NCBI RefSeq assembly: GCF_014280175.1
Contig: NZ_CP047931.1
Span: 1,860,001 to 1,892,000 of the forward strand
Source: Synechococcus sp. A15-28
Lineage (GTDB): Bacteria; Cyanobacteriota; Cyanobacteriia; PCC-6307; Cyanobiaceae
DNA: 32,000 nt
Reading direction: 5' to 3'
Under the pieces are notes generated by a model, which was not told the origin of the DNA, did no database searches, and saw only the letters and a program-made list of their open reading frames with translations. A program made the translations under genes and the position numbers. This document shows positions 7,895 through 32,000 of the stretch, piece after piece. Position 1 is the first letter of the stretch. Every line of letters begins with the position of its first letter.

Positions 7895-7908
7895 TCCGGA
7901 GCTCAACC

Positions 7909-9512: not shown

Positions 9513-9518
9513 TTCGCG

Positions 9519-9977: not shown

Positions 9978-10015
9978 TCCGGCCGGGTTCACCGTCCGTC
10001 AGCCCTAAGGTCTGA

Positions 10016-10050: not shown

Positions 10051-10081
10051 CTGCATTCAGCCCACCCCATTTCTCCTGTCC

Positions 10082-13122: not shown

Positions 13123-14061
13123 GTGCTGCAGTACCAGATCGACCGCATCGAGCATCAGGTGGAGGAGGATCGCTCCCAGAGCGGTGTGTTCCTCATCGGT
13201 CCCCTCGAGCGGGGTCAGGCGACCACCCTCGGCAACGCCCTGCGACGGGTTCTGATGGGCGGCCTCGAAGGCAGTGCCGTCACCGCCATTCGCATTGCCG
13301 GCGTTAACCACGAGTACGCCACCGTTCCCGGTGTGCGTGAAGACGTTCTCGACATCCTTCTGAACTGCAAGGAGCTCTCCGTCAACAGCCGCTCCCCAGA
13401 GCTCGAAATCGGCCGTCTCGTGGTGGCGGGTCCTGCTGAGGTGACCGCCAACGACCTGCAGTTCTCCTCGCAGGTGGACGTGGTCGACGGCAACCGACCC
13501 ATCGCCACCGTGGCCGATGGTTACAGCCTCGAGCTTGAGGTTCATGTCGAGCGCGGTGTGGGCTACAGGCCGGTGGATCGCCACAGCGAGGACACCAGCG
13601 CCATCGACCTGCTCCAGATCGATGCCGTGTTCATGCCGGTGATTCGGGTGAATTTCACCATCGATGAAACCGCTGTCGCCGAAGGGGGCTCAGCCCGTGA
13701 GCGTCTGCGCATGGAGATCGTCACCGACGGTTCCATCACGCCCGACGATGCTCTGGCTCAGTCAGCGAACCACCTGATCGAGTTGTTCCAGCCCCTCGCC
13801 ACGGTGACCCTCGTGGAGGAGCCTGGTGTCGAGCCTGAACCCTCTGCAGAAGCCCAGATTCCTCTGGAGGAACTCAACCTTTCAGTACGGGCTTACAACT
13901 GCCTCAAGCGGGCCCAGGTCAACTCCGTCTCCGACCTCATGGGCTTCAGCTACGAGGACCTGCTGGAGATCAAGAACTTCGGTTCCAAATCCGCCGACGA
14001 GGTGATCGAAGCGCTCGAACGCATCGGCATCTCCATCCCCCAGAGCCGCACCTCTGCCTGA
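13123..14061 (+). CDS. rpoA: DNA-directed RNA polymerase alpha subunit
   Basis: ORF 13048..14061. The GTG at 13123 gives [45 protein letters not shown] (312 aa) and avoids overlap with rpsK. C-terminal domain: [22 protein letters not shown]. Confidence 0.95.
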
Positions 14062-14108
14062 GATCGGCCTACCTGACCCCTTTCCCGACATCCGTCTCCG
14101 ACAGAACC

Positions 14109-14459
14109 ATGCGTCACCAATGCCGAGTTCCCCAGCTGGGCCGTCCTGCTGACCAGCGCAAGGCGATGCTCCGCGCCCTCACCACCCAGCTGATCCGCGA
14201 AGGTCGGGTGACCACCACCAAGGCCCGCGCCAAGGCCCTGCGCGACGAAGCGGAGCGGATGATCACCCTCGCCAAGGACGGCAGCCTGGCCTCCCGTCGT
14301 CGGGCTCTGGGCTACATCTACGACAAGCAATTGGTGCACGCTCTGTTCGACAAGGCACCCGACCGCTACAGCGACCGCAAGGGTGGTTACACCCGCATCA
14401 CCCGCACGGTGCCCCGTCGTGGCGACAACGCCGAGATGGCGATCATCGAACTGGTCTGA
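14109..14459 (+). CDS. rplQ: 50S ribosomal protein L17
   Basis: [45 protein letters not shown]. Confidence 0.98.
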
Positions 14460-14487
14460 TCCCCGCCCCCTGCGTCAGTTCTGACGT

Positions 14488-15387
14488 TTGAGCTCCGAAC
14501 CCTCGTCTGCAACTCCTGAGTCCCCGGTCCTTCGTCGGATCGCCCTCAGCCTGCAGTACGAGGGTTCTGCCTTTTGCGGATGGCAGCGACAACGCAATGG
14601 CCACAGCGTTCAGGCTCAACTGGAAGCGGCCATCGAGCAGCTGGATCCGCACCGACCGATCCAGACCTTCGCTGCGGGGAGAACCGACGCCGGCGTTCAT
14701 GCCGCGGGGCAGGTGGTGCATTTCGACTGTGGTGACAGGATTCCCCCCTCCAAATGGGCTCCAGCCCTGAACGGACGGTTGCCGTCCACAATCCGGGTGA
14801 GGGAGTCGGTGCCGCGGCCCATGGATTGGCACGCCTGCTACTCGGCCACCTACCGGCGCTATCGCTACACCATTCACAACGGTCGGCGGCCCAACCTGTT
14901 CCTCGCCCGCTGGAGTTGGCACCGCTATCGGCTCCGGCTGGATGAGTCCCGGATGCGGGACGCCCTCAACGGCATGCTCGGGCTCCATGACTTCAGCGCG
15001 TTCATGCGGGCCGGAAGCCGGCGGGCCCACGCCCGCACCACGGTTCAGGAGGTGGAGCTTGTGCGCCAGGGCGACATACTTCGCGTCGAGATCCAGGCCA
15101 GTGGGTTCCTTTACGGCATGGTTCGCCTGCTGATGGCTCAGCTGGTGGCCGTGGGCGAACACCGTCTGTCCGTCGGAGATTTCGAGCAGAGCTGGCGTCA
15201 GCGACGACGCCACGAGGTGAAGGAAGCCGCTCCTGGCCACGGGCTGTGCCTGCTCAGGGCAGGGTATGAGGACGACATCTTCACCAGAGCAGGCTGGTAC
15301 GATTGCCAACCTTGGTTTTTTCTGGCGGAGAGTGATCCCCCACCGGATCCTCCGCCTCTGCCGGAAGCAAGCGGATCTGAACTCTGA
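14488..15387 (+). CDS. truA: tRNA pseudouridine(38-40) synthase TruA
   Basis: [18 protein letters not shown]...[19 protein letters not shown] (catalytic Asp motif). The TTG start at 14488 is uncertain. Confidence 0.92.
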
Positions 15388-18348: not shown

Positions 18349-19479
18349 ATGTCGGAGCTAAGTCCACGCCAGCGCGCCTGGTTGGAGGTTTCCCCCACAG
18401 CCATCGAGGCCAACTGCCGGCTGCTGCGCCATCAGCTGGCGCCAGGCTGTCAATTCATGGCGGTGGTGAAAGCCGACGGCTATGGCCATGGCGCCGTCAC
18501 TGTGGCGCGAGCCGCTCTCCGCGGTGGCGCTTCAAGCCTCGGGGTGGCCACTCTTCAAGAAGGTCTGGAGCTCCGCACCGCCGGCATCGAGGCCCCAGTG
18601 CTGATCCTCAGCGCCCTTCGAAGCCCGGAGGATCTCAGCTGTTGCCTGGACGGGCGACTGATGCCCACCCTGAGCGGCCTGGACGAGGCGAAGACCGCCG
18701 CAGCGATCGCCGCTGAACGGGGAACCGATCGCTTTCCGGTGCAGCTGAAACTCGACACGGGCATGGCCCGACTGGGGGGCGAATGGCAGGAGGGCGCTGG
18801 GTTGGTGCAATCCATCCGCGCCCTGCCGCAGCTGGAGCTGGTGGGCCTCTACAGCCACCTCGCCTGCGCAGACGAGCCCGATGATCAGCTCACCCAAGTG
18901 CAGCTGCAGCGCTTTCGATCTGTCATTGAGGCCCTGCCGGATGGCGGCAGGGGCCTGTGCTGCCATCTGGCCAATTCCGCCGGCACCATGCAGTCCCCCA
19001 GCCTGCACCTGGACATGGTGCGGGTCGGTCTGGCCCTCTACGGCCAAGCCCCCGCCAGCCACCTCGGGCGGGACCTTCCACTGCAGCCTGCCTTGGCGGT
19101 GAAGGCACGTGTCAGCCTGATCCGGGAGGTGCCGAGCGGCAGCGGCGTCAGCTACGGCCATCGCTTTGTCACCAGTCGTCCATCGCGTCTCGCCGTGATC
19201 GGGATCGGCTATGCCGACGGCGTGGTCCGGGCCCTGAGCGGCCGAATCGAGGTTCTGCACGGCGGCCGCAGGCTGCCGCAGGTGGGCAACATCACCATGG
19301 ACCAGATCATCCTGGATGCCACCGATGTTGATGACCTGACAGTGGGTGACATCGTCACGCTGCTGGGGCAGGACGGATCTGAACGCATCAGTCCAGAGGA
19401 GTGGAGCACTCGCTGCAACACGATCCCCTGGGAAATCCTCTGTGGTTTCAAACATCGCCTGCCGCGGGTCGAGATCTGA
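18349..19479 (+). CDS. alr: Alanine racemase
   Basis: 376 aa; AVVKADGYGHG (PLP-lysine motif), SYGHRF, and the C-terminal TIPWEILCG pattern. Confidence 0.95.
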   Translation: MSELSPRQRAWLEVSPTAIEANCRLLRHQLAPGCQFMAVVKADGYGHGAVTVARAALRGGASSLGVATLQEGLELRTAGIEAPVLILSALRSPEDLSCCLDGRLMPTLSGLDEAKTAAAIAAERGTDRFPVQLKLDTGMARLGGEWQEGAGLVQSIRALPQLELVGLYSHLACADEPDDQLTQVQLQRFRSVIEALPDGGRGLCCHLANSAGTMQSPSLHLDMVRVGLALYGQAPASHLGRDLPLQPALAVKARVSLIREVPSGSGVSYGHRFVTSRPSRLAVIGIGYADGVVRALSGRIEVLHGGRRLPQVGNITMDQIILDATDVDDLTVGDIVTLLGQDGSERISPEEWSTRCNTIPWEILCGFKHRLPRVEI

Positions 19480-19516
19480 CCGACTGTCCAACGCTTGGTA
19501 AGCTGGGTATGCAACT

Positions 19517-19605
19517 GGAGAGGTGGCTGAGTGGTTGAAAGCGGCTCCCTGCTAAGGAGTTACAGGAGGCAACTTCTGTCGAGGGTTCGAATCCCTCCCT
19601 CTCCG
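19517..19605 (+). tRNA. tRNA-Ser (anticodon GCU), class II with a long variable arm; CCA not encoded
   Basis: Acceptor ggagagg / cctctcc plus discriminator g. Anticodon stem gctcc / ggagt with loop cTGCTaa. Variable arm acaggag-gcaa-cttctgt. T arm gaggg-ttcgaat-ccctc. Folded by eye. Confidence 0.9.
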
Positions 19606-19855
19606 TTGAAAACCTGATTTAGGAGTTCTCAGAAGATCCCAAATCTGGCCAAATCAAAGACCACCACTGGGAAGTGCATCCCTAGGGAGCTTCCATTGTG
19701 CCCCGAAGTCCCTTCGTTGTCATGGGGGAATTTGTGGGGGAACCGGTCTCATAGCAAACCAGGCAGTCTGACTGCGCGGCAATGGATCCCAAGCGAACAT
19801 GTGGGGGATAAGCATTCACCAAGCCGACATCGACCATCTCAGGTCCAAGCCATCC

Positions 19856-20369: not shown

Positions 20370-20531
20370 ATGGCACGAATCGGCAACAAAAAAGCGTTCA
20401 CCATCCATCTGAGCGATGAGATGGCGGCAATGATTGACCTCAAGCGCAAGGAGTGGGGCCTCAAAAGTCGAGGTGAAGTGATAGAGCGGCTTCTCGGTTG
20501 GATGATTGAGCCCACCGATTCCGATGGGTAG
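20370..20531 (+). CDS. Ribbon-helix-helix (CopG/Arc-like) small DNA-binding protein, 53 aa
   Basis: Manual translation, below the track cutoff: MARIGNKKAFTIHLSDEMAAMIDLKRKEWGLKSRGEVIERLLGWMIEPTDSDG. It shows a strand (KAFTIHL) then two helices. Its stop overlaps the start of the next ORF (ATGGGTAG). Confidence 0.6.
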   Translation: MARIGNKKAFTIHLSDEMAAMIDLKRKEWGLKSRGEVIERLLGWMIEPTDSDG

Positions 20532-20976
20532 TCGCAACGTCTCAGACCTGATCAAGCAACTCTTTGAGATCTCACGACAACTAGAGGCTGAGATCCCAGG
20601 CAGAAACTTTCTTCCCAGCGGTCAACAACTTGGAAACCTTGGAGAGGTCTTAGTTGCTGAGGCTTTCGGACTAAACCTTTGCAAGGCAATGACGAAGGGA
20701 ATTGATGCCCATACAGAAGATGGGCGAATGGTTCAGATCAAGACTGTTACGAGCAGATCTGCTGGGGTCCATCTCTCCAAGCGGCGTCCCAGCGTGAACA
20801 CGTACCTAATCGCAATCGAACTCAAACCAGATGGCACCTTTGAGGTGATCTACAACGGGCCTGAGATGCATGCGTGGCTTGTTCGCCAGTCAGGGAAGCC
20901 ATTCGTCTCGATGGGTCCTTTCCTGAAAGCTGCTGAAGCAATTCCGATGGACAAGCAACTCCCCTGTGTTGATTAA
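20524..20976 (+). CDS. Hypothetical protein with a PD-(D/E)xK-like (restriction-endonuclease-fold) signature, about 150 aa
   Basis: ORF 20506..20976, likely starting at 20524 (MGSRNVSDL). GNLGEVLVAEAFGL...KGIDAHTEDGRMVQIKT...YLIAIEL resembles an E...D...(Q/E)xK core. The third motif has Q rather than D/E, so catalytic status is uncertain. Confidence 0.6.
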   Translation: MGSRNVSDLIKQLFEISRQLEAEIPGRNFLPSGQQLGNLGEVLVAEAFGLNLCKAMTKGIDAHTEDGRMVQIKTVTSRSAGVHLSKRRPSVNTYLIAIELKPDGTFEVIYNGPEMHAWLVRQSGKPFVSMGPFLKAAEAIPMDKQLPCVD

Positions 20977-21073
20977 CAGGGCTAACCCCTGACCAAGCGT
21001 CAGAGGCGTGGCGGGAAAGCTTGGAACGAAGGAGGAGTGCTGAGGCCAGACTGGAGATGACTCAATCACCGTG

Positions 21074-21691
21074 ATGAACGAGGGCATCGTCTACGTCCTG
21101 ACCAATCCCGCCATGCCGAAGCTGGTGAAGATCGGAAAGACAGGTCGTGGTGTCGAGACGCGTCTGAACGACCTCTACACAACTGGCGTACCCCTGCCGT
21201 TTGAGTGCGCCTATGCCGCAAGGGTGGAGGACATGGACAAGGTGGAGAAAGCCTTCCACAACGCCTTTGGGCCATACAGGGTCAACCCAAGAAGGGAGTT
21301 CTTTGAGATTGAGCCCGAGCAGGCGATTGGGCTGCTGGATCTGATGAAGTTGGAGGACATGACTCCGGCAATGCAGGCTGAAGCCGAACAGGTGGACGTT
21401 CAGGCGAAAGCCTCAGCAGAGAAGCTCAAGCGTTCTCGTCGCCCCAACCTCAATTACATAGAGATGGGCATCCCTATTGGAAGCACCCTTCTGTATCAAG
21501 GGGATGGAGAGACCACTTGCACAGTTGCCGATGGCCGCAACGTCAGCTTTGAAGGGAGGACCCTCTCACTGACCAAGCTGACCAAAGAGCTACGACAGCA
21601 GCCAGATCGACCAATTCGCGGCCCTGCTCATTGGTCTTACAACGGACGACTTTTGGGGGAAATGTACGAAGAGACTTACGGAGAAGACTGA
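21074..21691 (+). CDS. GIY-YIG / T5orf172-family nuclease-like protein with a C-terminal extension
   Basis: GIVYVLTNPAMPKLVKIGKTGRGVETRLNDLYTTGVPLPFECAYAARVEDMDKVEKAFHNAFGPYRVNPRREFFEI is the T5orf172-type GIY-YIG pattern. GTG at 21071 is an alternative start. Confidence 0.8.
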   Translation: MNEGIVYVLTNPAMPKLVKIGKTGRGVETRLNDLYTTGVPLPFECAYAARVEDMDKVEKAFHNAFGPYRVNPRREFFEIEPEQAIGLLDLMKLEDMTPAMQAEAEQVDVQAKASAEKLKRSRRPNLNYIEMGIPIGSTLLYQGDGETTCTVADGRNVSFEGRTLSLTKLTKELRQQPDRPIRGPAHWSYNGRLLGEMYEETYGED

Positions 21692-21830
21692 TCTACATCC
21701 AACGCAATATTAGAAGAAGAGGCCAGCATCAAGGCGACTCAATGAAGCGAGATACTGGCTAAGAGTTCTGAATAGGAAGCTGATTCTCCCGCAATGACAA
21801 TGTCAACCTGTCCGCACTGCTGAAGCTTGA

Positions 21831-21859
21831 TTGACAAATTTAATAAACCAATTTAATAT
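21831..21859 (+). promoter_or_regulatory. Near-consensus sigma70-type promoter (TTGACA - 17 nt - TAATAT)
   Basis: ttgaca at 21831-21836, a 17-nt AT-rich spacer, and taatat at 21854-21859. Pattern match only. Confidence 0.4.
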
Positions 21860-21909
21860 AAATGCATTGCAAGGCAGTCGCTTGCGATATCACTTACCTT
21901 ATCTTTAAG

Positions 21910-22191
21910 ATGAAATCAACGAAATCTGCATGGTCTACCCACCTGGGCTTTAATATCTCCAAAGCAAAGCAAGAGCTTGGCGATGAGTTCCCAAGAAACT
22001 ACAACTCGCTCCTCAAAAAATGCGTATTAAGCGAAACTTCTAAACAAATCCTAGACATATATGCCGGGGACAAACGCTCACCAATTGATTACGATGCTTT
22101 CCTTGCGAGATTCTGCGACAAAGCCAAGTACAGGGCTGGAGTTATCGAGGCGATAAAGTGGACTCTTGAAGCCATGCAGCTTGGCAACTGA
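21910..22191 (+). CDS. Hypothetical protein, low-GC (93 aa from the second Met; the track ORF starts at 21862)
   Basis: ORF in AT-rich DNA: MKSTKSAWSTHLGFNISKAKQELG... The ATG at 21862 sits only 2 nt after the predicted -10 box, so 21910 is preferred. Confidence 0.45.
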   Translation: MKSTKSAWSTHLGFNISKAKQELGDEFPRNYNSLLKKCVLSETSKQILDIYAGDKRSPIDYDAFLARFCDKAKYRAGVIEAIKWTLEAMQLGN

Positions 22192-22252
22192 ATGATCTCG
22201 TCAATCCACAACTCGCAGTGGTAGAAAATAATTAGCGCGCCATCCCACCAGC

Positions 22253-22495
22253 ATGGCAACCCGCCTGATCACACCGAGCCAGCTGTCACTGTTCAGCATC
22301 AGCCCAGTGATCGGGGCCTGGTGGGAAGAGTTGCAGGCGCAGAATCTGTTTGAAGGCAGCAAGCCAGCGGTGAGTGAGCTGGATCAGCAGCTGGTGGCCG
22401 AATACGAGGCAAGGGGCGACTGGCTGCCCACCCCTCAACCTGCGAAAGCCAGTGCCAACAGACGTCAAGCAAAAGCACCCACCCGCTGTGGTTAG
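22253..22495 (+). pseudogene. Truncated 5' fragment of a RecB-like nuclease/helicase gene, paralogous to the start of 24095..27571
   Basis: Residues 6-47 (ITPSQLSLFSISPVIGAWWEELQAQNLFEGSKPAVSELDQQL) match residues 6-47 of the 1158-aa ORF with one substitution. It then diverges into 33 unrelated codons and a stop. Confidence 0.6.
22267..22393. repeat. Direct repeat copy 1 (127 bp, 120/127 identical to 24109..24235)
   Basis: Hand alignment of the two segments gives 7 mismatches and no gaps. Confidence 0.9.
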
Positions 22496-22677
22496 GTAGA
22501 ACCAACCACCACAGCACTTGTGCCTCGGATCAGGCTGTCGACGTAGTTCTGAACTATCAGCTCGATCTGTCCAGTGGCGCCCTTCCCATTACTAAAGGCA
22601 TCAACAATCAACTGAGGCCGCCAATAGAACAGCAGTGTAATGGCGCTCATATCCGCAATCACTGATCACAGCATTCT

Positions 22678-23196
22678 TCATCTTTTTACTTGACCTGTCA
22701 TCGTTATTTCCAGCGTTGGCTCTTCACTACAAATGCCGCAGACAAAATACCTAGCAAACTGATTGTCGGAAAAAAAATTCCATCCATCAGGCATCTTTTG
22801 TGTGAGCCTAAATGGCCTGAATCTTTCATTTTCTTCCGTCGTCAATATGGTGACCCTATCCGTCCAATCGAGGATTTTTGCAATTTGCACTACGTCATGC
22901 CTGTTGTTTACAATTTTTCTTCCAATCTCATTAGAAGGCACTGGGTGCTCATAAGTAAACTTATTTTTTTGCGATTTTAGCCCCCTTCTGAGCTTGCCAT
23001 CTCTCAGGAATCCGCTCCGGTCAAGGTATTCAATAGAGGACTCTGTGGCAAGATACGTATCTTTGGCAAGGCTATACTTTGCAATATAATTAAGAAGACC
23101 ATACCTAATTGTGTGATCTTCGTACATCCTATCAAACCCATCAATTTTTACTATGGAGCAAATAACTGTGTACAAGTCTTTTTGAAGTAAGTTCAT
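22678..23196 (-). CDS. Hypothetical protein, low-GC, 172 aa; possible His-Me finger (HNH/DUF1524-like) motif
   Basis: FTYEHPVPSN...(about 30 aa)...VTILTTEENERF resembles the (D/E)H-x2-P ... N-x-L-x3-N pattern. This is a weak motif-level call only. Confidence 0.55.
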   Translation of the reverse strand: MNLLQKDLYTVICSIVKIDGFDRMYEDHTIRYGLLNYIAKYSLAKDTYLATESSIEYLDRSGFLRDGKLRRGLKSQKNKFTYEHPVPSNEIGRKIVNNRHDVVQIAKILDWTDRVTILTTEENERFRPFRLTQKMPDGWNFFSDNQFARYFVCGICSEEPTLEITMTGQVKR

Positions 23197-23217
23197 CGCA
23201 AAATCCCCTCTTGGAGC

Positions 23218-23817
23218 TCACTGATTTTCATAATATGGATCTCTGTATTGAGTTGTAAGGTTGGTGATGGGAGATATATCCCAGAGATGATCCATGTCAA
23301 AACCTTCGCTATGAGCAATGGTTTCAGATTGCTTGTTTTCTTCGAAGCTGCCGGGGTGCACTCCCACTTCGCCATCATCTCCAATGCAGAAGTAGTCATC
23401 CCAAAAGCCTTCAAGAATATTTTGGCATTGGGCATCCTGATCGCTCCATTCAGGGCATGCCGCTTCTTCGGTGTAAAGATGACTACCTTTTGGCGTAGTT
23501 TTTGCGCCCTTCCATTCTCCTCCCGAAGAGTCTGAATAAAGCCAGAGTGAGTTGTTTCCATCACGCCTGAACAGGTAATCGCTTTGCATTCCGCCCCCAG
23601 AGTATCCATAGGCAAGTGCAGCTACCTCTTGCGTCTTTTCTCCATCTTCGTTGATGAAACCATCAAGAACAACATACAAAACAGCTACAAGAAGCTTTGA
23701 CTTACTCTCGTCAGAAAATTCGCAGAAAAATTCGGTTTCACTGATTCTGAGCGGCATGGCCTGTGAGCAAGTAAGTTGATTATAACTTAATAGATGCTTG
23801 GGTACCAGTAGAGGCAT
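23218..23817 (-). CDS. Hypothetical acidic Trp/Asp/Glu-rich protein, low-GC, 199 aa (an alternative start at 23757 gives 179 aa)
   Basis: Ends 21 nt upstream of the 172-aa ORF on the same strand, an operon-like arrangement. No family recognised. Confidence 0.5.
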   Translation of the reverse strand: MPLLVPKHLLSYNQLTCSQAMPLRISETEFFCEFSDESKSKLLVAVLYVVLDGFINEDGEKTQEVAALAYGYSGGGMQSDYLFRRDGNNSLWLYSDSSGGEWKGAKTTPKGSHLYTEEAACPEWSDQDAQCQNILEGFWDDYFCIGDDGEVGVHPGSFEENKQSETIAHSEGFDMDHLWDISPITNLTTQYRDPYYENQ

Positions 23818-24043
23818 TGTTTCTTGATTTATTCAGGAGCCATCTTCTCCCTGCCTCAATATGCACGAAAGCGAGGATTTCGTAGGCGGTGGACGCAATT
23901 GCCCGCTAGATGTGCGCATTGAATATCCCAATGAAACCAATTGCATTTTTCATTGGGAAAGTTTTTTGTTCGCTTGTGACGAGAGGATCTGTACGCAAAG
24001 AAATGATTTTATTTTTGCAGTCTTTGAACTACTAAATGAGTCT

Positions 24044-24072
24044 TTGACGCTGCGCTTTTATACTCATATTAT
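24044..24072 (+). promoter_or_regulatory. Near-consensus sigma70-type promoter (TTGACG - 17 nt - TATTAT) upstream of the helicase operon
   Basis: ttgacg at 24044-24049, a 17-nt spacer, and tattat at 24067-24072, about 22 nt before the TTG start at 24095. ggtgag (24081-24086) is a possible SD. Confidence 0.4.
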
Positions 24073-24094
24073 CTGGGCTTGGTGAGTTCTTGGC

Positions 24095-27000
24095 TTGAAC
24101 AACCGTCAGATCACCCCAAGCCAGCTGTCGCTGTTCAGCATCAGCCCAGTGATCGGAGCCTGGTGGGAGGAGCTGCAGGCGCAGAAGCTGTTTGAAGGCA
24201 GCAAGCCAGCGGTGAGTGAGCTGGATCAGCAGCTGTTTGCTGATGGCCTGCGCCACGAACAGGTACTGCTCACCAAGCTGGAAAAAGAAGGCCGCGGCAT
24301 TGCCCGGCTGCCCGGCAAACAAACCGAAGCCGATTACGCCGCCACCCGCCAGGCGATGACAGAGGGGGTGGAGTTCATCCACCAGGCCTCGCTATGTAAT
24401 GAGGAGATGCGCGGCAGTGCCGACCTGCTCAGGCGCATTGATCGCCCCTCATTACTGGGGGAGTGGAGCTACATCCCTATCGAGTGCAAGCTCGCCAGCA
24501 AACCGAAAACTACCTTCCTGGTGCAGGCTTCGGCCTACTGCGAAATGCTCACTCCATTGCTGGGGCATCGGCCCGATCAGTTCGAGCTCTATCTCGGCGG
24601 CGGCAAATTCCAGCCCTTTGGCACCGATCAGTTCTGGGCTTGGTACCAACTGCTGAGGCAGCGCTACCGCCAGTTCCGTGAGAGCTTCGATCCAGCGGTG
24701 ATTCCCGAGGATGCACCGGGGGATCACGGCGGCTGGTCGACGTTCATCGATCAACGGCTCGAAGAAGCGCGCGATCTGATGCTGGTGGCGGGCATGCGCC
24801 AGAGCCAGCGCCAGAAGCTGCGCGCTGCTGGCATCACCTCAATTGAGGAACTCGCAGCTGTTCCTGGTGGCACCGCTATCACCGGCCTGAATGGAGAGGC
24901 CCTACATGAGCTGCGCCAACAGGCCGAACTACAACTGCAGCCTGTGGATGCTGATGGCCGTCCGGCCTATCGCCTCAGGCCTATTGAAACCGGCAAAGGC
25001 CTTGCAGCTCTGCCGGCGCCTGATGCCGGCGACATCTGGTTCGACATGGAAGGGGTTCATGACCCGGTGAGCGGCAGCAAGCTCGAATACCTGTTTGGCG
25101 CCTGCTACCGGAATACCCCAGAGGGAAAGCCGTTGTTCAAGGCGTTCTGGGCCCATAGCGAAGCAGAGGAAAAACGCGCCTTCGAGGGGTGGGTGGATTG
25201 GGTGGAAGAACGACGCCGCCAGTGCCCGGGCCTGCGGATCTATCACTACGCCGCCTACGAGAAAACAGCGATGCGGCGCTTGGCGCAACAGCACGCCACC
25301 CGAGAAGCCGAGATCGATTCCTGGCTGCGCAACGAACTGCTTGTGGACCTGCTGCCAATCGTGACCAGCTCGATCGTTCTGGGCGAACCCAGCTACTCGA
25401 TCAAGAAGGTGGAGCACCTTTATATGGGTGCCCGCCATGCGGGGGTGACAAACGCCGGCGATTCAGTAGTGGCCTACCTGCACTGGCAGCTCTCCGGTGA
25501 GCCGGAGATGCCCGGAGAAGCGCCGGACGCCAGCCCGAAGCTGCAGGCGATTGAGGACTACAACCAAGAAGACTGCAAAAGCACGGTGTTCCTGCACGAC
25601 TGGCTGCTGAAGCTCAGGCGTGAGCAAGGCCTGCCGGATCAGCCCCTGCAGCTACCTCTGGATGAGGCTGCTCAGGAGCCACGGGAACCACAACCCCTCG
25701 AGCTGCTCAGCCAACAGCTACTCGAAGAAATCCCTGATCACCTGGCGGATAAACGTGCACTGGGTCCGCGCGGGATGAGCTGGCGGGCCCACAGGCTGCT
25801 GGCTCAGCTGCTGCCCTTCCATCACCGTGAAGCGAAGGTGGGCTGGTGGGCCTATTTCGATCGCCGCTCCAAGGCTGAACTCAGCCCATCGGAGCTGATC
25901 GACGACGGCGAAGCGATTGCCGACGCCCAATGGGTGGGGATGGACGAACGCCCCAGTGCTCGCACCGGCGCCGACATTCACCACTTCCGCTTTGACCCCA
26001 GCCAACCGCTGAAATTGCATGCCGGCGATGGCGACGGCCGGCTCACCGTTGAACTGCCCGCCACCAGCCTGAAGCTGGATGTGGATGCGCTCGATGCCGA
26101 ACGGGGAACGCTGAGCTTGAAGCTGCCCTGGAGCAAGCGCGATCAACGCCTCGCCAACGGCGAGGGCGAGGGCATCCCCAAAGACGCCACCTCGGTGATC
26201 AAGGTGCCGGCCGACATCAGCAAGAGCCTGCGCGAACGGCTGGAGGAGCAGGCCATGGCGTGGGTGCACGAGCACCAGCCGATCCCCCCAGCGATCCTGC
26301 AACTGCTGGAACGGCAACCCCTGCCGGCACTGCAAGAGCTCAATGCAGCCATTGCCGGGGATCCCAACGCCATTGCGGATGCCCTGGCGGGGTTTCTGCA
26401 GGAGCACTCCGGCATCAGCCTGGCGCTGCAGGGGCCACCGGGCACGGGTAAAACCACCGTCACCGGCCAGGTGATCGCCCAACTGGTGGCATCAGGCCAA
26501 CGGGTGGCAATCAGCTCCAACGGCCACGCCGCCATCAACAACCTGCTCAAGAAAGCCAAGAGCACCTGCAGCGCTGCAGGGGTGGCCGGCGAAGTGGTGA
26601 AGTGCAACAACAGCAAAGAAGAGGCGCTGAGCGCCGCAGGCATCAGCGTGGTGAAGCCCGGCCAACTCACGGAGGCCATGGCGGTGGTGGGTGGCACCAC
26701 CTGGATGTTCTGCAAAGAGGAGCTGGCGGATCAGTTCGATTGGCTGGTGGTGGATGAGGCGGGGCAGATGTCGCTCGCCAATCTGCTGGTGATGGCGCGT
26801 TGTGCCCGCTCGATCCTGCTGGTGGGCGATCAGCAGCAACTGGCCCAGCCCTCCCAGGCCGATCACCCCGGCGATTCAGGCCAAAGCTGCTTGGAGTACT
26901 GGATGGAAGGCGCCTCGGTGGTGCCAGACGATCGCGGCGTGTTTCTCTCCACCAGCTGGCGGATGGAACCAAGCCTCACCGCAATGGTGAGTGCGCTGTT

Positions 27001-27571
27001 TTATGAGGGCCGGCTGCAGGCCAGCTCCGCCAATTGCAGAAATCGCATCACATGGGCCACACCCTGCCAAGGCAGTGACGGACAGCTATACCCAAATCAA
27101 GGCCTGGAGTTTGATCCGGTGGCGCACAGCGGCAACAGCGTCTGCAGCGAAGAAGAAATCAACCGCATCGAAACGTTGGTGGATGCGCTGCTGGGGGGCC
27201 GCTACCAACACGCCAAAGCCGGGGGCATCGCAGCAGGCACGCTGACGCCAGACCAGATACTGGTGACGGCGCCCTACAACGTGCAGGTGAACCGGCTGCA
27301 GCAACGGCTGAATGGCAAAGCCCGGGTGGGCACGGTGGACAAGTTCCAAGGCCAGGAGGCACCCGTTGCCATTCACTCCTTAACGGCGAGCAGCGGCGAT
27401 GAAGCACCGAGGGGGCTGAGCTTTCTGCTGGAGCCGAACCGCTTGAACGTGGCGATCAGCCGCGCCCAATGCCTTTCGATCGTTGTGGGCTCACCCAGCC
27501 TGGCCAGCGGCATCGCCAACACGGTGGCGGAGGCCGAGCAGATCAATCGGTTGTGTGAGGTGATGGGCTGA
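24095..27571 (+). CDS. Fusion protein (1158 aa): RecB/Cas4-like PD-(D/E)xK nuclease, RNase H-like exonuclease module and SF1 (Upf1/Dna2-like, AAA_11/AAA_12) helicase; TM0106-family-like N-terminal half
   Basis: TTG start, the only start after the in-frame TGA at 24083. D110...E130-C-K132 (SADLL...IPIECKLASK); GITSIEELA (HhH-like); IWFDMEG and EDYNQEDC acidic motifs; LQGPPGTGKTT (Walker A, nt 26431-26454); LVVDEAGQM; VDKFQGQEAPV; LNVAISRA. Confidence 0.9.
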   Translation: MNNRQITPSQLSLFSISPVIGAWWEELQAQKLFEGSKPAVSELDQQLFADGLRHEQVLLTKLEKEGRGIARLPGKQTEADYAATRQAMTEGVEFIHQASLCNEEMRGSADLLRRIDRPSLLGEWSYIPIECKLASKPKTTFLVQASAYCEMLTPLLGHRPDQFELYLGGGKFQPFGTDQFWAWYQLLRQRYRQFRESFDPAVIPEDAPGDHGGWSTFIDQRLEEARDLMLVAGMRQSQRQKLRAAGITSIEELAAVPGGTAITGLNGEALHELRQQAELQLQPVDADGRPAYRLRPIETGKGLAALPAPDAGDIWFDMEGVHDPVSGSKLEYLFGACYRNTPEGKPLFKAFWAHSEAEEKRAFEGWVDWVEERRRQCPGLRIYHYAAYEKTAMRRLAQQHATREAEIDSWLRNELLVDLLPIVTSSIVLGEPSYSIKKVEHLYMGARHAGVTNAGDSVVAYLHWQLSGEPEMPGEAPDASPKLQAIEDYNQEDCKSTVFLHDWLLKLRREQGLPDQPLQLPLDEAAQEPREPQPLELLSQQLLEEIPDHLADKRALGPRGMSWRAHRLLAQLLPFHHREAKVGWWAYFDRRSKAELSPSELIDDGEAIADAQWVGMDERPSARTGADIHHFRFDPSQPLKLHAGDGDGRLTVELPATSLKLDVDALDAERGTLSLKLPWSKRDQRLANGEGEGIPKDATSVIKVPADISKSLRERLEEQAMAWVHEHQPIPPAILQLLERQPLPALQELNAAIAGDPNAIADALAGFLQEHSGISLALQGPPGTGKTTVTGQVIAQLVASGQRVAISSNGHAAINNLLKKAKSTCSAAGVAGEVVKCNNSKEEALSAAGISVVKPGQLTEAMAVVGGTTWMFCKEELADQFDWLVVDEAGQMSLANLLVMARCARSILLVGDQQQLAQPSQADHPGDSGQSCLEYWMEGASVVPDDRGVFLSTSWRMEPSLTAMVSALFYEGRLQASSANCRNRITWATPCQGSDGQLYPNQGLEFDPVAHSGNSVCSEEEINRIETLVDALLGGRYQHAKAGGIAAGTLTPDQILVTAPYNVQVNRLQQRLNGKARVGTVDKFQGQEAPVAIHSLTASSGDEAPRGLSFLLEPNRLNVAISRAQCLSIVVGSPSLASGIANTVAEAEQINRLCEVMG
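24109..24235. repeat. Direct repeat copy 2 (127 bp), inside the 5' end of the 1158-aa ORF
   Basis: See copy 1. 6 of the 7 differences are synonymous in the shared frame. Confidence 0.9.
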
Positions 27572-30500
27572 TGGATGTCTTTTCCTTCCGAGACCGGGTT
27601 ATTGAGGACTACGGCCAGTTCTCGCGCAGCTTCACCCAGATCAAATCGCCCGATCTCCAGTCGTTTGTGGACGGGACCTATGGCAAGGGCGAGTACTGGC
27701 CGTCACCACTCATCCAGCTGAATCCAAGCTTTGTGAGCGGCGGCGCCATCAGCAAGCTGGTGGACACAGGGCTCCTTCATCCGGAATGCAGCCGGATCTT
27801 CCGCTGGGGTAAGGACAACGGCACTGGTCAGGAACTCCAGTTACACCGCCACCAGCGCGATGCCATTGAAATTGCCAGCCGTGGCGGCAGCTTTGTCGTG
27901 ACGTCGGGCACGGGCTCCGGTAAGTCGCTGGGTTACATCATTCCGATCGTGAATCGGGTTCTGGAAGCGCGCGCGCGAGGGGATCAGCAGAAACGCATTC
28001 GGGCGATTGTGATTTATCCGATGAATGCACTGTGCAATAGCCAGCAAGAGGAATTACAGAAATATCTCGGCCTTGGCTATCCGGAAGGACCGAAAGTCAC
28101 TTTTGCGCGATATACAGGTCAGGAAAGCGATGAAGAGCGGGAGAAGATCAAGAATGATCCCCCCGACATCCTGCTCACCAACTATGTGATGCTCGAGTAC
28201 ATCCTGACCCGGCAGGATCCACTCGATCAGAAAGTCATCGGCGACGCCAAGGGACTGGAGTTCCTGGTGCTTGACGAGTTGCATACCTATCGAGGGAGGC
28301 AGGGTGCGGACGTCGCACTCTTGGTACGCCGAGTCAGACAACGACTGAATGCCAATCTGCTCTGCATTGGCACCTCGGCCACCATGGCCTCAGAAGGCAC
28401 GGCCAAGGAACGCAATGCCACCGTGGCGCATGTTGCAAGCAAGCTTTTTGGCACCGAAATCCCCAGCGAACACATCGTCACGGAGACGCTGCAGCGCTGC
28501 ACTGAAGGTGATCTTCCCAACCAGGAAGAGTTAACCCAGGCCCTAAGAGTTGATTATTCGACTCAAGTAACCGAAACCTGGACAGCTGAAGATTTACGCC
28601 AGCACCCTCTCGCCCGCTGGGTTGAGTTGAAGCTCGGCCTCGAGAAAGAAGACGGGTTGCCTGATGGCAAATGGGTGCGCTGTAAGCCGCACACCCTTCA
28701 GCAGGCCACCAGCACATTGGCCGAGCAAACAGGGCTAAATGAGGAACAGATCCTGGCAACGTTGAGGGATTTCCTTCTGGCTGCCTATCAGGTGGAAGTT
28801 GGACCGAATCGGCGCTTTTTTGCCTTTCGCCTGCATCAATTTGTCTCCGCAGGCGGCGAAGTGCAAGCATCTCTCCAAGCCCCTCAGAAACGCTATCTCA
28901 CGCTGAAGGCGCAGAAGTACCAACCCAATGCCGGGCGCCAGGCACTGCTCTACCCGGTTGTGTTCTGCCGGAACTGCGGGCAAGATTTTCACCCGGTGTG
29001 GGCCCATCTCAATAACAAGATTCCAGTCAATATCGATCCACGCGATTTCAAAGACGAATCAAGTCTTCGCGAACGGGATGTGGTGAATGGCTACTTCATG
29101 CCCGATGCCAACGGTGAATACACCATCGATGACTTGGAGAAAGCCAACTTTCCCGATGGTTGGCTTGAGCCTGACAAGAATGACGAGCTTGTCCTGAAGC
29201 GCACGTATCGGGAGTTTGCCCCGGTGCCTTGTCGTTTTCGCTCCGATGGAGGTGCGAGCAGTGATGGGCTTTCCGGCTGGTTTCTGAAAGGGAGTTTCCG
29301 CTTCTGCCCAAGCTGTGGTGTGGAGCACGGGGTGCGCAGCAGCGAATTTCGCAAGCTTTGTGGGCTCAACTCAGAAGGCCGCAGCTCCGCCACGACCACC
29401 TTGAGCCTGGCGGTGCTGAGGCAACTGCTGGCGTTCCCAGCGAAGGAGATCCCTGATCAGGCCCGCAAACTGCTGGCCTTCAGTGACAACCGGCAGGACG
29501 CATCACTGCAGGCCGGCCACTTCAACGATTTTGTGCGGGTTCTGCAGCTACGGGCAGGCCTCATTGCCGCATTGAGCGCGCAATCCGAGAAGGAACTGAG
29601 CCTTGAAACCCTGGCGCAGGCCGTGGAAAAAGCCCTACGGCTCGATGCGGAAGACTTCATCGCCATTCCCAACGTCAAACCCAACATCGAGCAAAGCAAT
29701 CGCCGTGCTCTGCGGGGAGTGTTGGAGTACCGGCTGATGGTGGACCTGCGCAAAGGCTGGCGGCTCACCAATCCCAACCTCGAGCAACTGCGGTTGCTTG
29801 AAGTGGATTATGCGGAGCTAGTGAATTGTGCAGAAGACCAGGAGGACTGGGGGCAGCGCCATCCTTTGCTGGCTCAAGCGAGCAGTGAAGAACGGTTCCT
29901 GATCTGCCATCGCCTCCTGGAAGAGCTCAGGGAACGACTTGCGATCGACTGTGATGCACTGATTCAAGAGGAATTCGAACGGCGCAAGAAGTCAGCAACC
30001 GATCTTGAGGAGGTCTGGAGCATCGGCCGCGAGGAGAAGCCAGAGCTGGCCCGCAGTGTGGTGACAAGCCCAGTCCCCCAGGAGCTCAGAAACCGTGGTG
30101 TTGAAGGCTTATCGCTCCGTGGTGAATTCGGTCGCTGGCTGAAGGCACGCGAACGCTGGCTCTCGGCAGAAGACCTCTACCGAACCCTGAAATGGAAGGA
30201 CGACCTCTACCAAGAGGTGATGGGTCACATCCTCGAGATGCTGTCGGCATGGGGCCTTGTGAAGACCGTGGACGTGCGGCTTGGCCGCAAGGCTCGTGAG
30301 GTGATGCAAGGTTGGCGCCTCAACAGCACTGCTCTGCGTTGGACTCTGGTGGACCCGGAATCACCACCTCAGGACCGCTACGCCGCGTGTTTGGAACAAG
30401 TGCGGCAGAACAGTGGGCGACGTGGGCCGGTCAACCCCTACTTCCGAAGTCTCTACGCCGACCTCGCCCATCTGATCGCAACAGAAGGCCGACCATTCCT

Positions 30501-32000
30501 GCAGACGCTGTCCGCACGGGAGCACACAGCCCAAGTGGATGCGAGTGAGCGCGAACGACGGGAAGATGACTTCCGCAGTGCTGCCCTGCGGCTGATGTAC
30601 TGCTCACCCACGATGGAATTGGGCGTTGATATTTCATCGCTCAACACTGTTTACATGCGCAATGTGCCGCCCACGCCGGCGAACTATGCGCAGCGCAGCG
30701 GACGCGCCGGCCGTAGCGGGCAACCAGCTCTGGTGTTGAGCTATTGCGGTGCCACCTCACCCCACGACCAGTACTTTTTTGCGGATCCAGTGCGGATGGT
30801 GGCGGGTGCTGTAAGTGCTCCAACGCTGGAATTGGCCAATGAAGAGTTGCTCAAGGCCCACTTCCGGGCGCTTTGGCTGGCAGCCACTCGGCAGCGCCTG
30901 CCCGGGAAGGTGAAGGAGCTGGTGAACATCAGTGCCCCAGGGCGGCCAGTTCAAGCAGAGCTGATGGAGGCCCTCTCCAGGGATGAGGCCTACCGCTCAG
31001 CCCAGGCTGATTGCCAGGCCATCGTTGACGACCTGATCGAGAAGCAATGCCTCGGAAGCACGCCACCGCCATGGCTCACAGGCAGCTGGCTAGAAGCGAT
31101 CACCCATGGCGCCGCGCTGGATTTCGAGGCCGCGCTCAGCCGCTGGCGTGAGCTTCTTGAGGCAGTGGATGGTCAGATCAACCAGGCACTCAAAGATCTG
31201 GGGAACCACGCCATCAGCGAGCGGGAGCGTCTGGCCGCCGACACCCGCCTCAAAGCAGCACGAATGCAACAACAGTTGCTGCTGGCGGATAAGCCAGGAA
31301 GCGGCAACAGCAACAACGACTTCAGCACCTATCGCTACCTGGCAAGCCAAGGCTTCATGCCGGGGTACAACTTCCCGCGTCTGCCGCTGATGGCGTACAT
31401 CCCTGGCACACGAGAACAAGTGGGCGGCGGCACTTACATCACTCGCCCGCGGTTTGTCGGCATCAGTGAATTCGGTCCCCACTCACTGATCTATCACGAG
31501 GGGAACACCTACAAGGTGAAAGGTGCACTGCTGGGGTTGCAGGACAACGCGGCTGCAGCCGGATCAGCCACCCTCGCCACGCAGGACGCCTTGGTGTGTG
31601 GGGCCTGCGGCCATGCCCATCTCGGTAATGCCGCTGAATCAGAACTGTGTTGCCACTGCGGCACACCGCTGAAGCTGCATCCCGAGGGCAAAGCCGTTCG
31701 GATCCCAAAGCTGTATCAAATCGAGCAGGTCACCACGAGGAGAGCTGATCGGATCACCTCCGACGACGAAGAACGGCAACGCCTCGGCTATGAGCTGATC
31801 ACCACCTACGAATTCCCCAAGGACAACGGGGTGGTGAAAGTGGCGAAGGCCCAGGTGAGCTGCGAGGGGCAGCCGTTACTGGAGCTCAGCTACGCACCAG
31901 CTACGCAGATCAGCCGGGTGAACCTCGGCTGGCGGCGGCGGGAGAACAAAAACGACATGGGCTTCCCGATCCACCCGATCAACGGACAGTGGGGCGGCGA
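27571..32000 (+). CDS. Large DExH-box (SF2) helicase with a DUF1998/MrfA-type zinc-binding module; partial, more than 1476 codons, running off the right window edge
   Basis: Not in the ORF track because it has no stop in the window. I translated frame 1 codon by codon from ATG 27571 to 31998 and found no stop. Motifs: TSGTGSGKS (res 111), DELH (235), TSAT (268), LLAFSDNRQDA (about 637), QRSGRAGR (1041), YRYLASQGFMPGYNFPR (1254), CGAC...CCHC (1343-1363). The ATG shares its A with the upstream TGA. Confidence 0.9.
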   Translation, partial: MDVFSFRDRVIEDYGQFSRSFTQIKSPDLQSFVDGTYGKGEYWPSPLIQLNPSFVSGGAISKLVDTGLLHPECSRIFRWGKDNGTGQELQLHRHQRDAIEIASRGGSFVVTSGTGSGKSLGYIIPIVNRVLEARARGDQQKRIRAIVIYPMNALCNSQQEELQKYLGLGYPEGPKVTFARYTGQESDEEREKIKNDPPDILLTNYVMLEYILTRQDPLDQKVIGDAKGLEFLVLDELHTYRGRQGADVALLVRRVRQRLNANLLCIGTSATMASEGTAKERNATVAHVASKLFGTEIPSEHIVTETLQRCTEGDLPNQEELTQALRVDYSTQVTETWTAEDLRQHPLARWVELKLGLEKEDGLPDGKWVRCKPHTLQQATSTLAEQTGLNEEQILATLRDFLLAAYQVEVGPNRRFFAFRLHQFVSAGGEVQASLQAPQKRYLTLKAQKYQPNAGRQALLYPVVFCRNCGQDFHPVWAHLNNKIPVNIDPRDFKDESSLRERDVVNGYFMPDANGEYTIDDLEKANFPDGWLEPDKNDELVLKRTYREFAPVPCRFRSDGGASSDGLSGWFLKGSFRFCPSCGVEHGVRSSEFRKLCGLNSEGRSSATTTLSLAVLRQLLAFPAKEIPDQARKLLAFSDNRQDASLQAGHFNDFVRVLQLRAGLIAALSAQSEKELSLETLAQAVEKALRLDAEDFIAIPNVKPNIEQSNRRALRGVLEYRLMVDLRKGWRLTNPNLEQLRLLEVDYAELVNCAEDQEDWGQRHPLLAQASSEERFLICHRLLEELRERLAIDCDALIQEEFERRKKSATDLEEVWSIGREEKPELARSVVTSPVPQELRNRGVEGLSLRGEFGRWLKARERWLSAEDLYRTLKWKDDLYQEVMGHILEMLSAWGLVKTVDVRLGRKAREVMQGWRLNSTALRWTLVDPESPPQDRYAACLEQVRQNSGRRGPVNPYFRSLYADLAHLIATEGRPFLQTLSAREHTAQVDASERERREDDFRSAALRLMYCSPTMELGVDISSLNTVYMRNVPPTPANYAQRSGRAGRSGQPALVLSYCGATSPHDQYFFADPVRMVAGAVSAPTLELANEELLKAHFRALWLAATRQRLPGKVKELVNISAPGRPVQAELMEALSRDEAYRSAQADCQAIVDDLIEKQCLGSTPPPWLTGSWLEAITHGAALDFEAALSRWRELLEAVDGQINQALKDLGNHAISERERLAADTRLKAARMQQQLLLADKPGSGNSNNDFSTYRYLASQGFMPGYNFPRLPLMAYIPGTREQVGGGTYITRPRFVGISEFGPHSLIYHEGNTYKVKGALLGLQDNAAAAGSATLATQDALVCGACGHAHLGNAAESELCCHCGTPLKLHPEGKAVRIPKLYQIEQVTTRRADRITSDDEERQRLGYELITTYEFPKDNGVVKVAKAQVSCEGQPLLELSYAPATQISRVNLGWRRRENKNDMGFPIHPINGQWGG

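Follow-up and report, generated by a model that had tools for sequence, protein, structure and literature searches.

The genome of Synechococcus sp. A15-28 contains two large genes that share a single base, which raises the question of whether they form one dedicated system or belong to different ones. Both lie in a stretch of 32,000 nucleotides (positions 1,860,001 to 1,892,000 of the forward strand of NZ_CP047931.1), hereafter the window. Open reading frame 1 (ORF1) encodes a nuclease-helicase, and ORF2, which runs beyond the end of the window, a DExH helicase. The last base of the ORF1 stop codon is the first base of the ORF2 start codon (cTGATGg). A reading made from the sequence alone (the sequence-only reading) had described this overlap correctly and had proposed a distinct, undescribed two-helicase system. 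The comparison with homologs presented here points to another explanation, which we consider probable: two separate defense-island modules, an ARMADA Type I system (ORF2) and an autonomous ORF1, are joined end to end.

Co-occurrence of ORF1 and ORF2 and their junction

For the ORF1 family, 163 loci were fetched, with at least 500 bp visible past the stop codon in 142 of them and at least 3 kb in 111. An ORF2-like gene was found downstream of the ORF1 homolog in none of these 142 loci. For the ORF2 family, five independent genomic contexts with 47-90% identity to ORF2 were compared, and an ORF1-like gene stands upstream in none of them. Adjacent co-occurrence across genomes, which the sequence-only reading had put forward as a check, was thus not seen, and a conserved ORF1-ORF2 system is not supported by these comparisons. 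The relatives of ORF2 belong, moreover, to a three-gene system that has already been described (see below). Since those relatives lie in ARMADA Type I and the homologs of the two genes are not co-localized, both outcomes that the sequence-only reading had itself named as speaking against it were observed.

The point at which the two genes meet (Table 1) appears to be a boundary between unrelated homology blocks. In blastn comparisons, the ORF1 relatives align up to 27555-27565, and the ORF2 relatives align from 27565-27571 onward. On the left, ORF1 homology ends just past the conserved ...AEQINRLCEVM, where the variable tail of 7-9 amino acids (aa) in the relatives is replaced by 'G-stop' in the window; on the right, the DNA upstream of each ORF2 relative is its own, and these upstream regions are mutually unrelated. 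Because the two blocks end and start there, the overlap can be read as their junction, and as part of the joint reading it is likely to represent a scar of cassette exchange at the ORF1 3' end and not an evolved, conserved coupling.

ORF1 homologs in other genomes diverge right past the same motif, ...AEQINRLC(E/R)V(M/I), with a variable tail of 7-9 aa followed by differing cargo (divergence points in Table 1). The 3' end of ORF1 looks as if it were a fixed border for exchangeable cassettes.

The sequence-only reading had further held that the pair appears co-transcribed and coupled. A promoter-like site lies 5' of ORF1, and on the plus strand from this site to ORF2 no further promoter-like or terminator-like site was found. 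Co-transcription in the window strain is therefore plausible, although these sites suggest it only weakly, and the overlap probably puts ORF2 under the ORF1 promoter. As there is no intergenic spacer, ORF2 would be expressed either from the ORF1 transcript or from an internal promoter. Co-transcription thus stands as a plausible proposal, whereas the coupling appears to be neither evolved nor conserved.

The one-base overlap and the lack of a terminator-like site between the genes would also fit an elaborated MrfAB logic, in which ORF1 and ORF2 constitute a dedicated system with two motors and multiple nucleases that operates without a methyltransferase, and the RNase H-fold exonuclease domain of ORF1 together with the YprA-family helicase of ORF2 does recall MrfA/MrfB. 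This explanation seems very improbable, given that the pairing is absent from all 142 ORF1 loci and all five ORF2 contexts, that two homology blocks end exactly at the junction, and that the ORF2 relatives carry SNF2 and methyltransferase partners. In addition, the nuclease region of ORF1 has no meaningful match among PDB chains (MrfB included, if deposited), the best of three chance-level matches at E≤10 having an E-value of 0.12. A tie of the ORF1 exonuclease domain to a solved MrfB was dropped on this ground; the family of this domain, PF13482, is presumably linked to YprB/MrfB.

Table 1. Positions of genes, domains and other features, numbered within the window or within the comparison locus named
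Sequence	Feature	Position	Strand	Remarks
Window	alr	18349-19479		before tRNA-Ser(GCT)
Window	tRNA-Ser(GCT)	19516-19606	+	left edge of the island carrying both genes
Window	DUF6998 gene	20506-20976	+	weak match to methyl-directed type II restriction enzyme model
Window	T5orf172/MUG113 gene	21071-21691	+	PADLOC candidate PDC-S57, 3e-78
Window	ORF1-like relic, first 47 codons	22252-22401	+	ATG start; inside ORF 22253-22495
Window	Low-GC block	22402-24094		GC 0.44-0.49; between relic and ORF1
Window	ORF in low-GC block	22678-23196	-
Window	ORF in low-GC block	23218-23817	-
Window	ORF in low-GC block	23861-24085	+
Window	Promoter-like site TTGACG-17-TATTAT	24044-24072	+	consensus match; ~23 bp 5' of ORF1 start
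Window	ORF1	24095-27571	+	TTG start; 1158 aa; TGA 27569-27571
Window	ORF1 nuclease module, aa 62-504	24278-25606	+	PD-(D/E)xK core, then RNase_H_2 domain
Window	ORF1 RNase_H_2 exonuclease-like domain, aa 315-504	25037-25606	+	PF13482, 2.6e-16
Window	ORF1 SF1B helicase core (Upf1/Dna2/IGHMBP2-like), aa 770-1137	26402-27505	+	AAA_11, AAA_12, AAA_30
Window	Divergence point of ORF1 homologs	27540-27571
Window	Module junction	27565-27573	+	ORF1 homology end meets ORF2 start
Window	Stop/start overlap cTGATGg	27569-27573	+
Window	ORF2	27571 to beyond 32000	+	ATG 27571-27573; open for 1476 codons to window end
Window	ORF2 RecA1/DEAD domain, aa 93-274	27847-28392	+	PF00270 5.8e-28; Walker A K118, DELH 235-238
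Window	ORF2 insertions after RecA1	28522-29325	+	helical domain aa 318-406; beta-rich zinc module aa 430-585
Window	ORF2 RecA2/Helicase_C core, aa 980-1050	30508-30720	+	PF00271 9e-13
Window	ORF2 YRYLASQGFMPGYNFP motif and CxxC...CCxC cluster, aa 1254-1363	31330-31662	+	precedes true MZB/DUF1998
L001	Divergence point of ORF1 homolog	13470-13501
L001	DUF8426/PDC-S02 gene	13498-14559		between ORF1 homolog and BREX
L005	DruE-like gene (DEAD-YjiV_N-Helicase_C-MZB)	1-1475		2133 aa
L006	Mrr-like DUF8426 gene	6955-8013		PDC-S02, 1e-146; upstream of ARMADA I
L006	DUF4325/STAS_2 gene	21501-22736		411 aa; two genes after methyltransferase
L010	PIN toxin and RHH antitoxin genes	13292-14121	opposite	between SNF2 and methyltransferase genes
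L011	PIN toxin and RHH antitoxin genes	9477-10306	opposite	between SNF2 and methyltransferase genes
L015	Divergence point of ORF1 homolog	13460-13489
L095	Divergence point of ORF1 homolog	5322-5352

ORF2 and the operon of its relatives

The five contexts of the ORF2 family are represented by the relatives P0121 (locus L094, 90% identity), P0124 (L006-L009, 87%), P0123 (L014, 87%), P0137 (L010-L011, 79%) and P0163 from Magnetococcus marinus MC-1 (L012-L013, 49%). In all five, the gene directly 3' of the ORF2 relative, within ~25 bp, encodes an SNF2 helicase of 948-1011 aa, whose start overlaps the stop of the relative in L006-L009, L014 and L094. Wherever the contig runs on, a methyltransferase of 1171-1354 aa follows (N6_Mtase, MmeI_Mtase, Eco57I). 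PADLOC was applied to the L006 proteins and the L094 SNF2 helicase, and the neighbors in L010-L014 and elsewhere in L094 were assigned by Pfam. The SNF2 helicases of L006 and L094 matched DpdE (1.5e-192 and 2.5e-168, respectively), DrmD (1.5e-81 and 1.7e-87) and BrxHII (up to 6e-56), and the L006 methyltransferase matched DrmMI (1e-66).

A system of this kind was named ARMADA, for disARM-related Antiviral Defense Array, by Bell et al. (bioRxiv 10.1101/2025.09.15.676423). Its Type I consists, in this order, of a YprA-like helicase, an SNF2 helicase and a PglX/DrmMI-like methyltransferase; the Type I YprA homolog is closest to that of Druantia, with a predicted active C-terminal Vsr nuclease, and the ARMADA YprA proteins contain insertions after RecA1, namely a BrxA-like domain, a CxxC beta-barrel and a MarR-like domain (bioRxiv 10.1101/2025.09.15.676423). 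Judged by order and composition, the operon of the ORF2 relatives is the published ARMADA Type I; ORF1 is not among the components listed for ARMADA. Probably, ORF2 itself is the first gene of such an operon and encodes a YprA-family DExH helicase-nuclease, of which the nuclease part is predicted. As the SNF2 and methyltransferase genes lie 3' of the ORF2 relatives, the 'missing' methyltransferase of the window should be located past base 32000. The sequence-only reading had noted the lack of a methyltransferase in the 4.5 kb upstream, which is the wrong direction, the relatives carrying theirs downstream.

Over its full visible length of 1476 aa, ORF2 is 90% identical, gap-free, to P0121 (1815 aa), and its complete length is expected to be ~1815 aa. 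PADLOC scores were 5e-96 for DruE3 and 1e-80 for DruE1, versus 4e-25 for DpdJ and 1e-13 for DrmA, and the closest PDB sequences are 9tu7 and 9wae (helicases of ~2000 aa), followed by B. subtilis MrfA/YprA. By these scores and matches ORF2 groups with DruE rather than with DrmA or Dpd, and the kinship to DISARM and Druantia suggested from the sequence alone is borne out. An AlphaFold2 (AF2) model of aa 1-900 (pLDDT 76, pLDDT being the predicted local distance difference test) comprises RecA1, the helical domain at 318-406, the beta-rich module at 430-585 and a long helical region, and its best Foldseek match is MrfA 6znp. Two cysteine pairs in the beta-rich module, C466/C469 and C579/C582, are invariant in the family alignment.

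The sequence-only reading had assigned ORF2 a set of DExH helicase motifs, which agrees with the DEAD and Helicase_C matches, and a DUF1998 signature with a zinc site, which does not correspond to the Pfam MZB domain. Pfam detected no MZB in the window part of ORF2 (to aa 1476), and the MZB of P0121 is located at aa 1525-1621, past the window end; the cysteines at aa 1254-1363 are an extra zinc module preceding MZB/DUF1998. Membership in the YprA/DUF1998 helicase family is still right by homology to P0121. In all full-length ORF2 homologs checked (1740-1860 aa), DEAD, Helicase_C and MZB are found in one protein. A C-terminal DUF559 (Vsr-like) domain was matched above the cut-off in P0161 (4.8e-06) and at 0.003-0.005 in P0163 and P0121, with no match in P0124 even at E≤1; PDF...IDGPHH motifs are conserved across the family alignment.

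A mechanism for the ORF2 operon can be proposed from the genetics of ARMADA II and the biochemistry of DISARM and Druantia; in recent work on Druantia III, DruE was found to be a 3'-5' helicase dependent on single-stranded DNA (ssDNA). The PglX/DrmMI-like N6-adenine methyltransferase would mark host DNA, and the YprA-like motor (ORF2) would load on ssDNA-containing or unmodified invader DNA and translocate. The Vsr nuclease fused to ORF2 would then cut the invader DNA, the SNF2 ATPase being needed as well, and the outcome would be a direct, non-abortive clearance of phage DNA.

Several other genes were noted in the loci of the ORF2 relatives (Table 1). A PIN toxin and a ribbon-helix-helix (RHH) antitoxin are inserted on the opposite strand in L010 and L011. 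The DUF4325/STAS_2 protein of L006 matches the N-terminal 350 positions of the 1750-position PADLOC DrmA model (1e-84), which suggests that a module fused to DrmA in some DISARM systems may be free-standing here. The Mrr-like DUF8426 gene is found both upstream of ARMADA I (L006) and between an ORF1 homolog and a bacteriophage exclusion (BREX) system (L001), the two copies being 72% identical, which points to a small set of modules being reshuffled in mosaic fashion.

Domain architecture of ORF1

Domain matches identify ORF1 as a TM0106-family RecB-like nuclease that is predicted to combine, in one chain, a PD-(D/E)xK nuclease, an RNase_H_2 exonuclease domain and a Upf1/Dna2-type helicase of superfamily 1B (SF1B). 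The NCBIfam model TIGR03491 (TM0106 RecB-like nuclease) matches aa 62-504 with 207 bits against a cut-off of 97.45, which places ORF1 in this family, and RefSeq names the homologs likewise. Across an alignment of 14 sequences with identities as low as 53%, the nuclease residues D110, E130 and K132 (PD-(D/E)xK), D317 and E319 (WFDMEG) and D493 (YNQEDC) are invariant, as are the helicase motifs GPPGTGKT at 780-787 (Walker A) and DEAGQ at 887-891; the PD-(D/E)xK, RNase H-like and SF1 helicase motifs listed by the sequence-only reading are thus present and conserved.

The helicase core matches Upf1, Dna2, IGHMBP2 and Sen1 among PDB sequences. For the AF2 model of ORF1, which is of moderate quality (pLDDT 67.7, with poor modeling of helicase domain 2A), the best Foldseek match is the Dna2 nuclease-helicase 5ean over the full length (E 8e-17). 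Together with the domain matches, this supports the Nhi-like layout of nuclease plus SF1 helicase that had been recognized from the sequence. Mokosh was considered as an assignment for ORF1 and rejected, as the PADLOC MkoA matches are limited to the generic Upf1-like helicase core (best-scoring stretch listed, aa 858-1156) and there is no partner of the phospholipase D (PLD) type. From this architecture, ORF1 alone would most likely thread and degrade DNA ends or flaps, using its PD-(D/E)xK endonuclease, DEDD/RNase H-fold exonuclease and SF1B 5'-3' helicase.

Distribution and genomic context of the ORF1 family

The ORF1 family is a large, uncharacterized Dna2-like nuclease-helicase family with a defense-island habit. 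Homologs with 33-89% identity are found in hundreds of genomes and on plasmids, the best matches having 84% identity in the genome scan and 88% in the metagenome scan. At E≤1e-5, 2646 database proteins match ORF1, some of which may match the generic helicase core only; the family was recorded in more than 465 species genomes and 595 metagenome stretches, and full-length homologs are present on 55 plasmid records. Their sole annotation is 'TM0106 family RecB-like putative nuclease', and a literature search on TM0106 returned nothing relevant to the family.

All-against-all clustering of the ORFs flanking the ORF1 homologs revealed no universal neighbor, and synteny is lineage-local only (sbcCD, WYL regulators). 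In only 33 of 111 loci does an ORF of 150 aa or more lie within 150 bp of the homolog in the same direction, and many neighbors are convergent. The homologs occupy varied chromosomal sites, in tRNA-linked islands or islands rich in insertion sequences (IS), beside McrBC, HsdR, BREX and PDC genes. Distant homologs have unrelated, convergent or housekeeping neighbors such as sbcCD, ADP-ribosylglycohydrolase or CysRS/Dxr, and some of them are IS-flanked with no adjacent defense system.

In the closest relatives of ORF1 (82-89% identity), the place of ORF2 is taken by different cargo, namely BrxA/BREX in L095, HsdR and HsdM in L096, HsdM in L015, and PDC-S02 followed by BrxA and BrxB in L001/L002. 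Among contexts with an ORF1 at least 82% identical, the window included, all five have a methylation-based system co-directional within 150 bp, namely ARMADA I in one, BREX in two and type I restriction-modification (R-M) in two. The start of the cargo overlaps the stop of the ORF1 homolog in the window, L001 and L096, and follows it by a few bp in L015.

In 8-9 loci of a Cyanobium/Vulcanococcus subgroup (L005, L023, L024, L025, L041, L052, L058, L090, L099), the ORF1 homolog is followed after 0.1-2 kb by sbcD and sbcC, with variable small inserts between. Regulators of the helix-turn-helix (HTH)-WYL-WCX type, similar to PafBC/BrxR, are encoded upstream of or beside the homologs at nine or more loci, of which eight are from non-cyanobacterial bacteria (L043, L045, L055, L060, L063, L067, L070, L074) and one on a Sphingomonas plasmid (L178); four of these regulators are Pfam-confirmed (L043, L045, L067, L178). 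Such neighbors hint at a damage- or infection-responsive control of the ORF1 homologs. A YprA-type gene near an ORF1 homolog was seen in one locus only, L005 from Cyanobium sp. NIES-981; this DruE-like gene ends 8.5 kb upstream of the homolog, with several IS/transposase genes between.

Possible roles of ORF1

For the role of ORF1, we give anti-phage or anti-plasmid defense about an even chance; damage-inducible repair is possible at lower odds, and a function for mobile elements is rather unlikely. Defense appears somewhat likelier than repair owing to the island and plasmid habit of the family and its McrBC, HsdR and BREX neighbors, whereas the sbcCD neighbors and the PafBC/BrxR-type WYL-WCX regulators keep repair possible.

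Repair also underlies an explanation in which ORF1, as a bacterial analog of Dna2, serves in DNA repair or the damage response and stands beside ARMADA by coincidence. Its GC content resembles that of the host core and not that of the island, Dna2 is its best structural match, and both the downstream sbcD-sbcC genes and the adjacent WYL-WCX regulators would be in keeping with such a function; the regulators, however, do not separate defense from repair, because WYL regulators control defense systems too. The scattering of homologs over varied chromosomal sites, tRNA-linked and IS-rich islands and plasmids, and their McrBC, HsdR, BREX and PDC neighbors, argue against a repair enzyme, and this explanation is accordingly considered unlikely.

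The methylation-based systems that follow the close relatives, together with the fourth gene of ARMADA II, suggest that ORF1 could be an auxiliary or a hotspot marker. As a lineage-specific auxiliary of methylation-based cassettes, it would finish DNA engaged by the adjacent ARMADA, BREX or type I R-M system, in the manner of ArmD or of RecBCD after restriction. All five contexts with a closely related ORF1 would agree with this, and ARMADA II does require a fourth gene that encodes a nuclease-like domain fused to an SF1 helicase. However, distant homologs stand beside unrelated, convergent or housekeeping genes, the ARMADA I relatives lack an ORF1-like gene and yet function or at least persist, and the five related contexts may represent one inherited hotspot and not five independent associations. 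A dedicated auxiliary thus seems improbable. There is, finally, a small chance that the family is an unrecognized stand-alone or auxiliary immune enzyme whose 3' end is the fixed left border of a hotspot in marine Synechococcus; ARMADA I, BREX and type I R-M cassettes would be swapped at this end, and ORF1 would be co-transcribed with, and perhaps boost, whichever system docked there.

Four points weigh against two independent modules. Directly 3' of all five of the closest ORF1 relatives lies a methylation-based system, a regularity greater than one might expect from simple clutter in an island. The window ends inside ORF2, and the SNF2 and methyltransferase genes of this locus are predicted from its relatives. 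The experiments found in the literature cover ARMADA Type II only, none having been found on Type I. Shared expression, in turn, leaves room for some functional interplay of ORF1 and ORF2 in the window strain. The joining of an ARMADA Type I system to an autonomous ORF1 is nevertheless the explanation we favor.

If so, a marine picocyanobacterium carries a Type I system of a class described in 2025, in a tRNA-Ser defense island, which is of use for cyanophage-host ecology and for the choice of a Type I representative. The locus reveals no new kind of two-helicase system; it flags the ORF1 family as a large, uncharacterized Dna2-like nuclease-helicase family whose 3' end repeatedly borders exchangeable restriction-type cassettes in this lineage.

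Surroundings of the locus

Both genes belong to an island that begins at tRNA-Ser(GCT), where the content of guanine and cytosine (GC) falls from 0.62-0.65 before the tRNA gene to 0.44-0.53 after it. ORF1, at 0.59-0.65, is host-like and unlike the surrounding island. The tRNA linkage, the low GC content and the PDC-S57 match agree with the tRNA-linked island with other nuclease genes that the sequence-only reading had described. The DUF6998 family also occurs upstream of the ORF1 homolog in L095 and T5orf172 in L096, and the two genes may belong to an island backbone common to these loci. The ORF1-like relic, left by a second ORF1-like allele 1.85 kb upstream of the intact ORF1, shares 91% nucleotide identity with the beginning of the L015 homolog, which suggests past recombination or replacement at ORF1. 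For the three ORFs of the low-GC block, no significant Pfam or PADLOC family was found (DUF6837 at a sub-threshold E of 0.009 for the first).

Comparison with known systems

MrfA/MrfB (YprA/YprB), which function in mitomycin repair in B. subtilis, resemble the pair in that a YprA-family helicase stands beside an RNase H-fold exonuclease. Unlike MrfA, ORF2 belongs to the YprA family's defense branch, contains large insertions and carries a predicted fused nuclease, and the adjacency of ORF1 and ORF2 is not conserved.

For ORF1, the closest parallels are Nhi and eukaryotic Dna2, in both of which, as in ORF1, a single chain joins an N-terminal PD-(D/E)xK nuclease to an SF1B helicase. Nhi (SERP2475 of S. 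epidermidis) acts against phage as a single gene and occurs near R-M genes. ORF1 differs from both by an added RNase_H_2 exonuclease domain and a middle region of ~260 aa, and from Nhi by its AAA_11/AAA_12 helicase, PF09848 (DUF2075/SLFN-g3) scoring 19.4 bits against a cut-off of 24. No PADLOC model named for Nhi was among the ORF1 matches, the presence of such a model in PADLOC 2.0.0 not having been verified. By sequence, ORF1 appears to be analogous to Nhi in layout and is not a member of the Nhi family.

DISARM class 1 (DrmD, DrmMI, DrmA, DrmB, DrmC) resembles the operons of the ORF2 relatives in their partners, which match DrmD (up to 1.7e-87) and DrmMI (1e-66). The DrmA score of ORF2 is only 1e-13, however, no PLD-type DrmC is present, and the ORF2 homologs hold helicase and MZB in one protein in place of separate DrmA and DrmB. 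Druantia Type III (DruH-DruE) is similar in that ORF2 finds its best matches, by PADLOC and among PDB sequences, in DruE-like helicases; it differs in the C-terminus, which is Vsr/DUF559 in the ORF2 family and not a tandem PLD, and in the partners, which are SNF2 and methyltransferase. PADLOC returned no DruH match for ORF1 nor for the five L006 neighbors of the ORF2 homolog, namely the SNF2 helicase (DpdE/DrmD), the methyltransferase (DrmMI), the 411-aa protein (DrmA N-terminus), the PDC-S02 protein and a 207-aa protein (no match). A Druantia III system with ORF1 as DruH was rejected on account of the missing DruH match and of these partners.

ARMADA Type II (armABCD of E. coli) provides non-abortive, direct and broad anti-phage defense (bioRxiv 10.1101/2025.09.15.676423; PMC13463889, mBio 2026) and needs all four genes, the ATPase motifs and the NPPW motif of the methyltransferase (bioRxiv 10.1101/2025.09.15.676423; PMC13463889). 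Its three core activities are the same as those of the ORF2-family operons. It is distinguished by its gene order (SNF2, methyltransferase, YprA, ArmD), by the extra EEP and Vsr domains of ArmC, and by ArmD, a RelE-GajB-like UvrD helicase of which no homolog was seen in the operons of the ORF2 relatives. ORF1 differs from ArmD in being an SF1B and not a UvrD-type helicase and in lying upstream of ORF2.

From ARMADA Type I, the locus departs in that ORF2 is fused to the 3' end of the unrelated ORF1, so that its operon is left without an upstream region of its own, and in that its SNF2 and methyltransferase genes would fall outside the window. In many cyanobacteria the Type I order is reversed (SNF2-methyltransferase-YprA; bioRxiv 10.1101/2025.09.15.676423), whereas the picocyanobacterial loci among L006-L014 and L094 are all YprA-first. 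Other features are shared with Type I. The ORF2 relatives lead their operon; next come an SNF2 helicase resembling BrxHII/DrmD and then a methyltransferase resembling PglX/DrmMI. The ORF2 helicase is nearest to DruE and has insertions after RecA1 that include a CxxC-rich beta module; these sit where the ARMADA/Druantia clade has its BrxA-like and beta-barrel ZBM insertions, the BrxA fold itself not being demonstrated. The full-length ORF2 relatives, lastly, end in MZB and a predicted Vsr/DUF559 domain.

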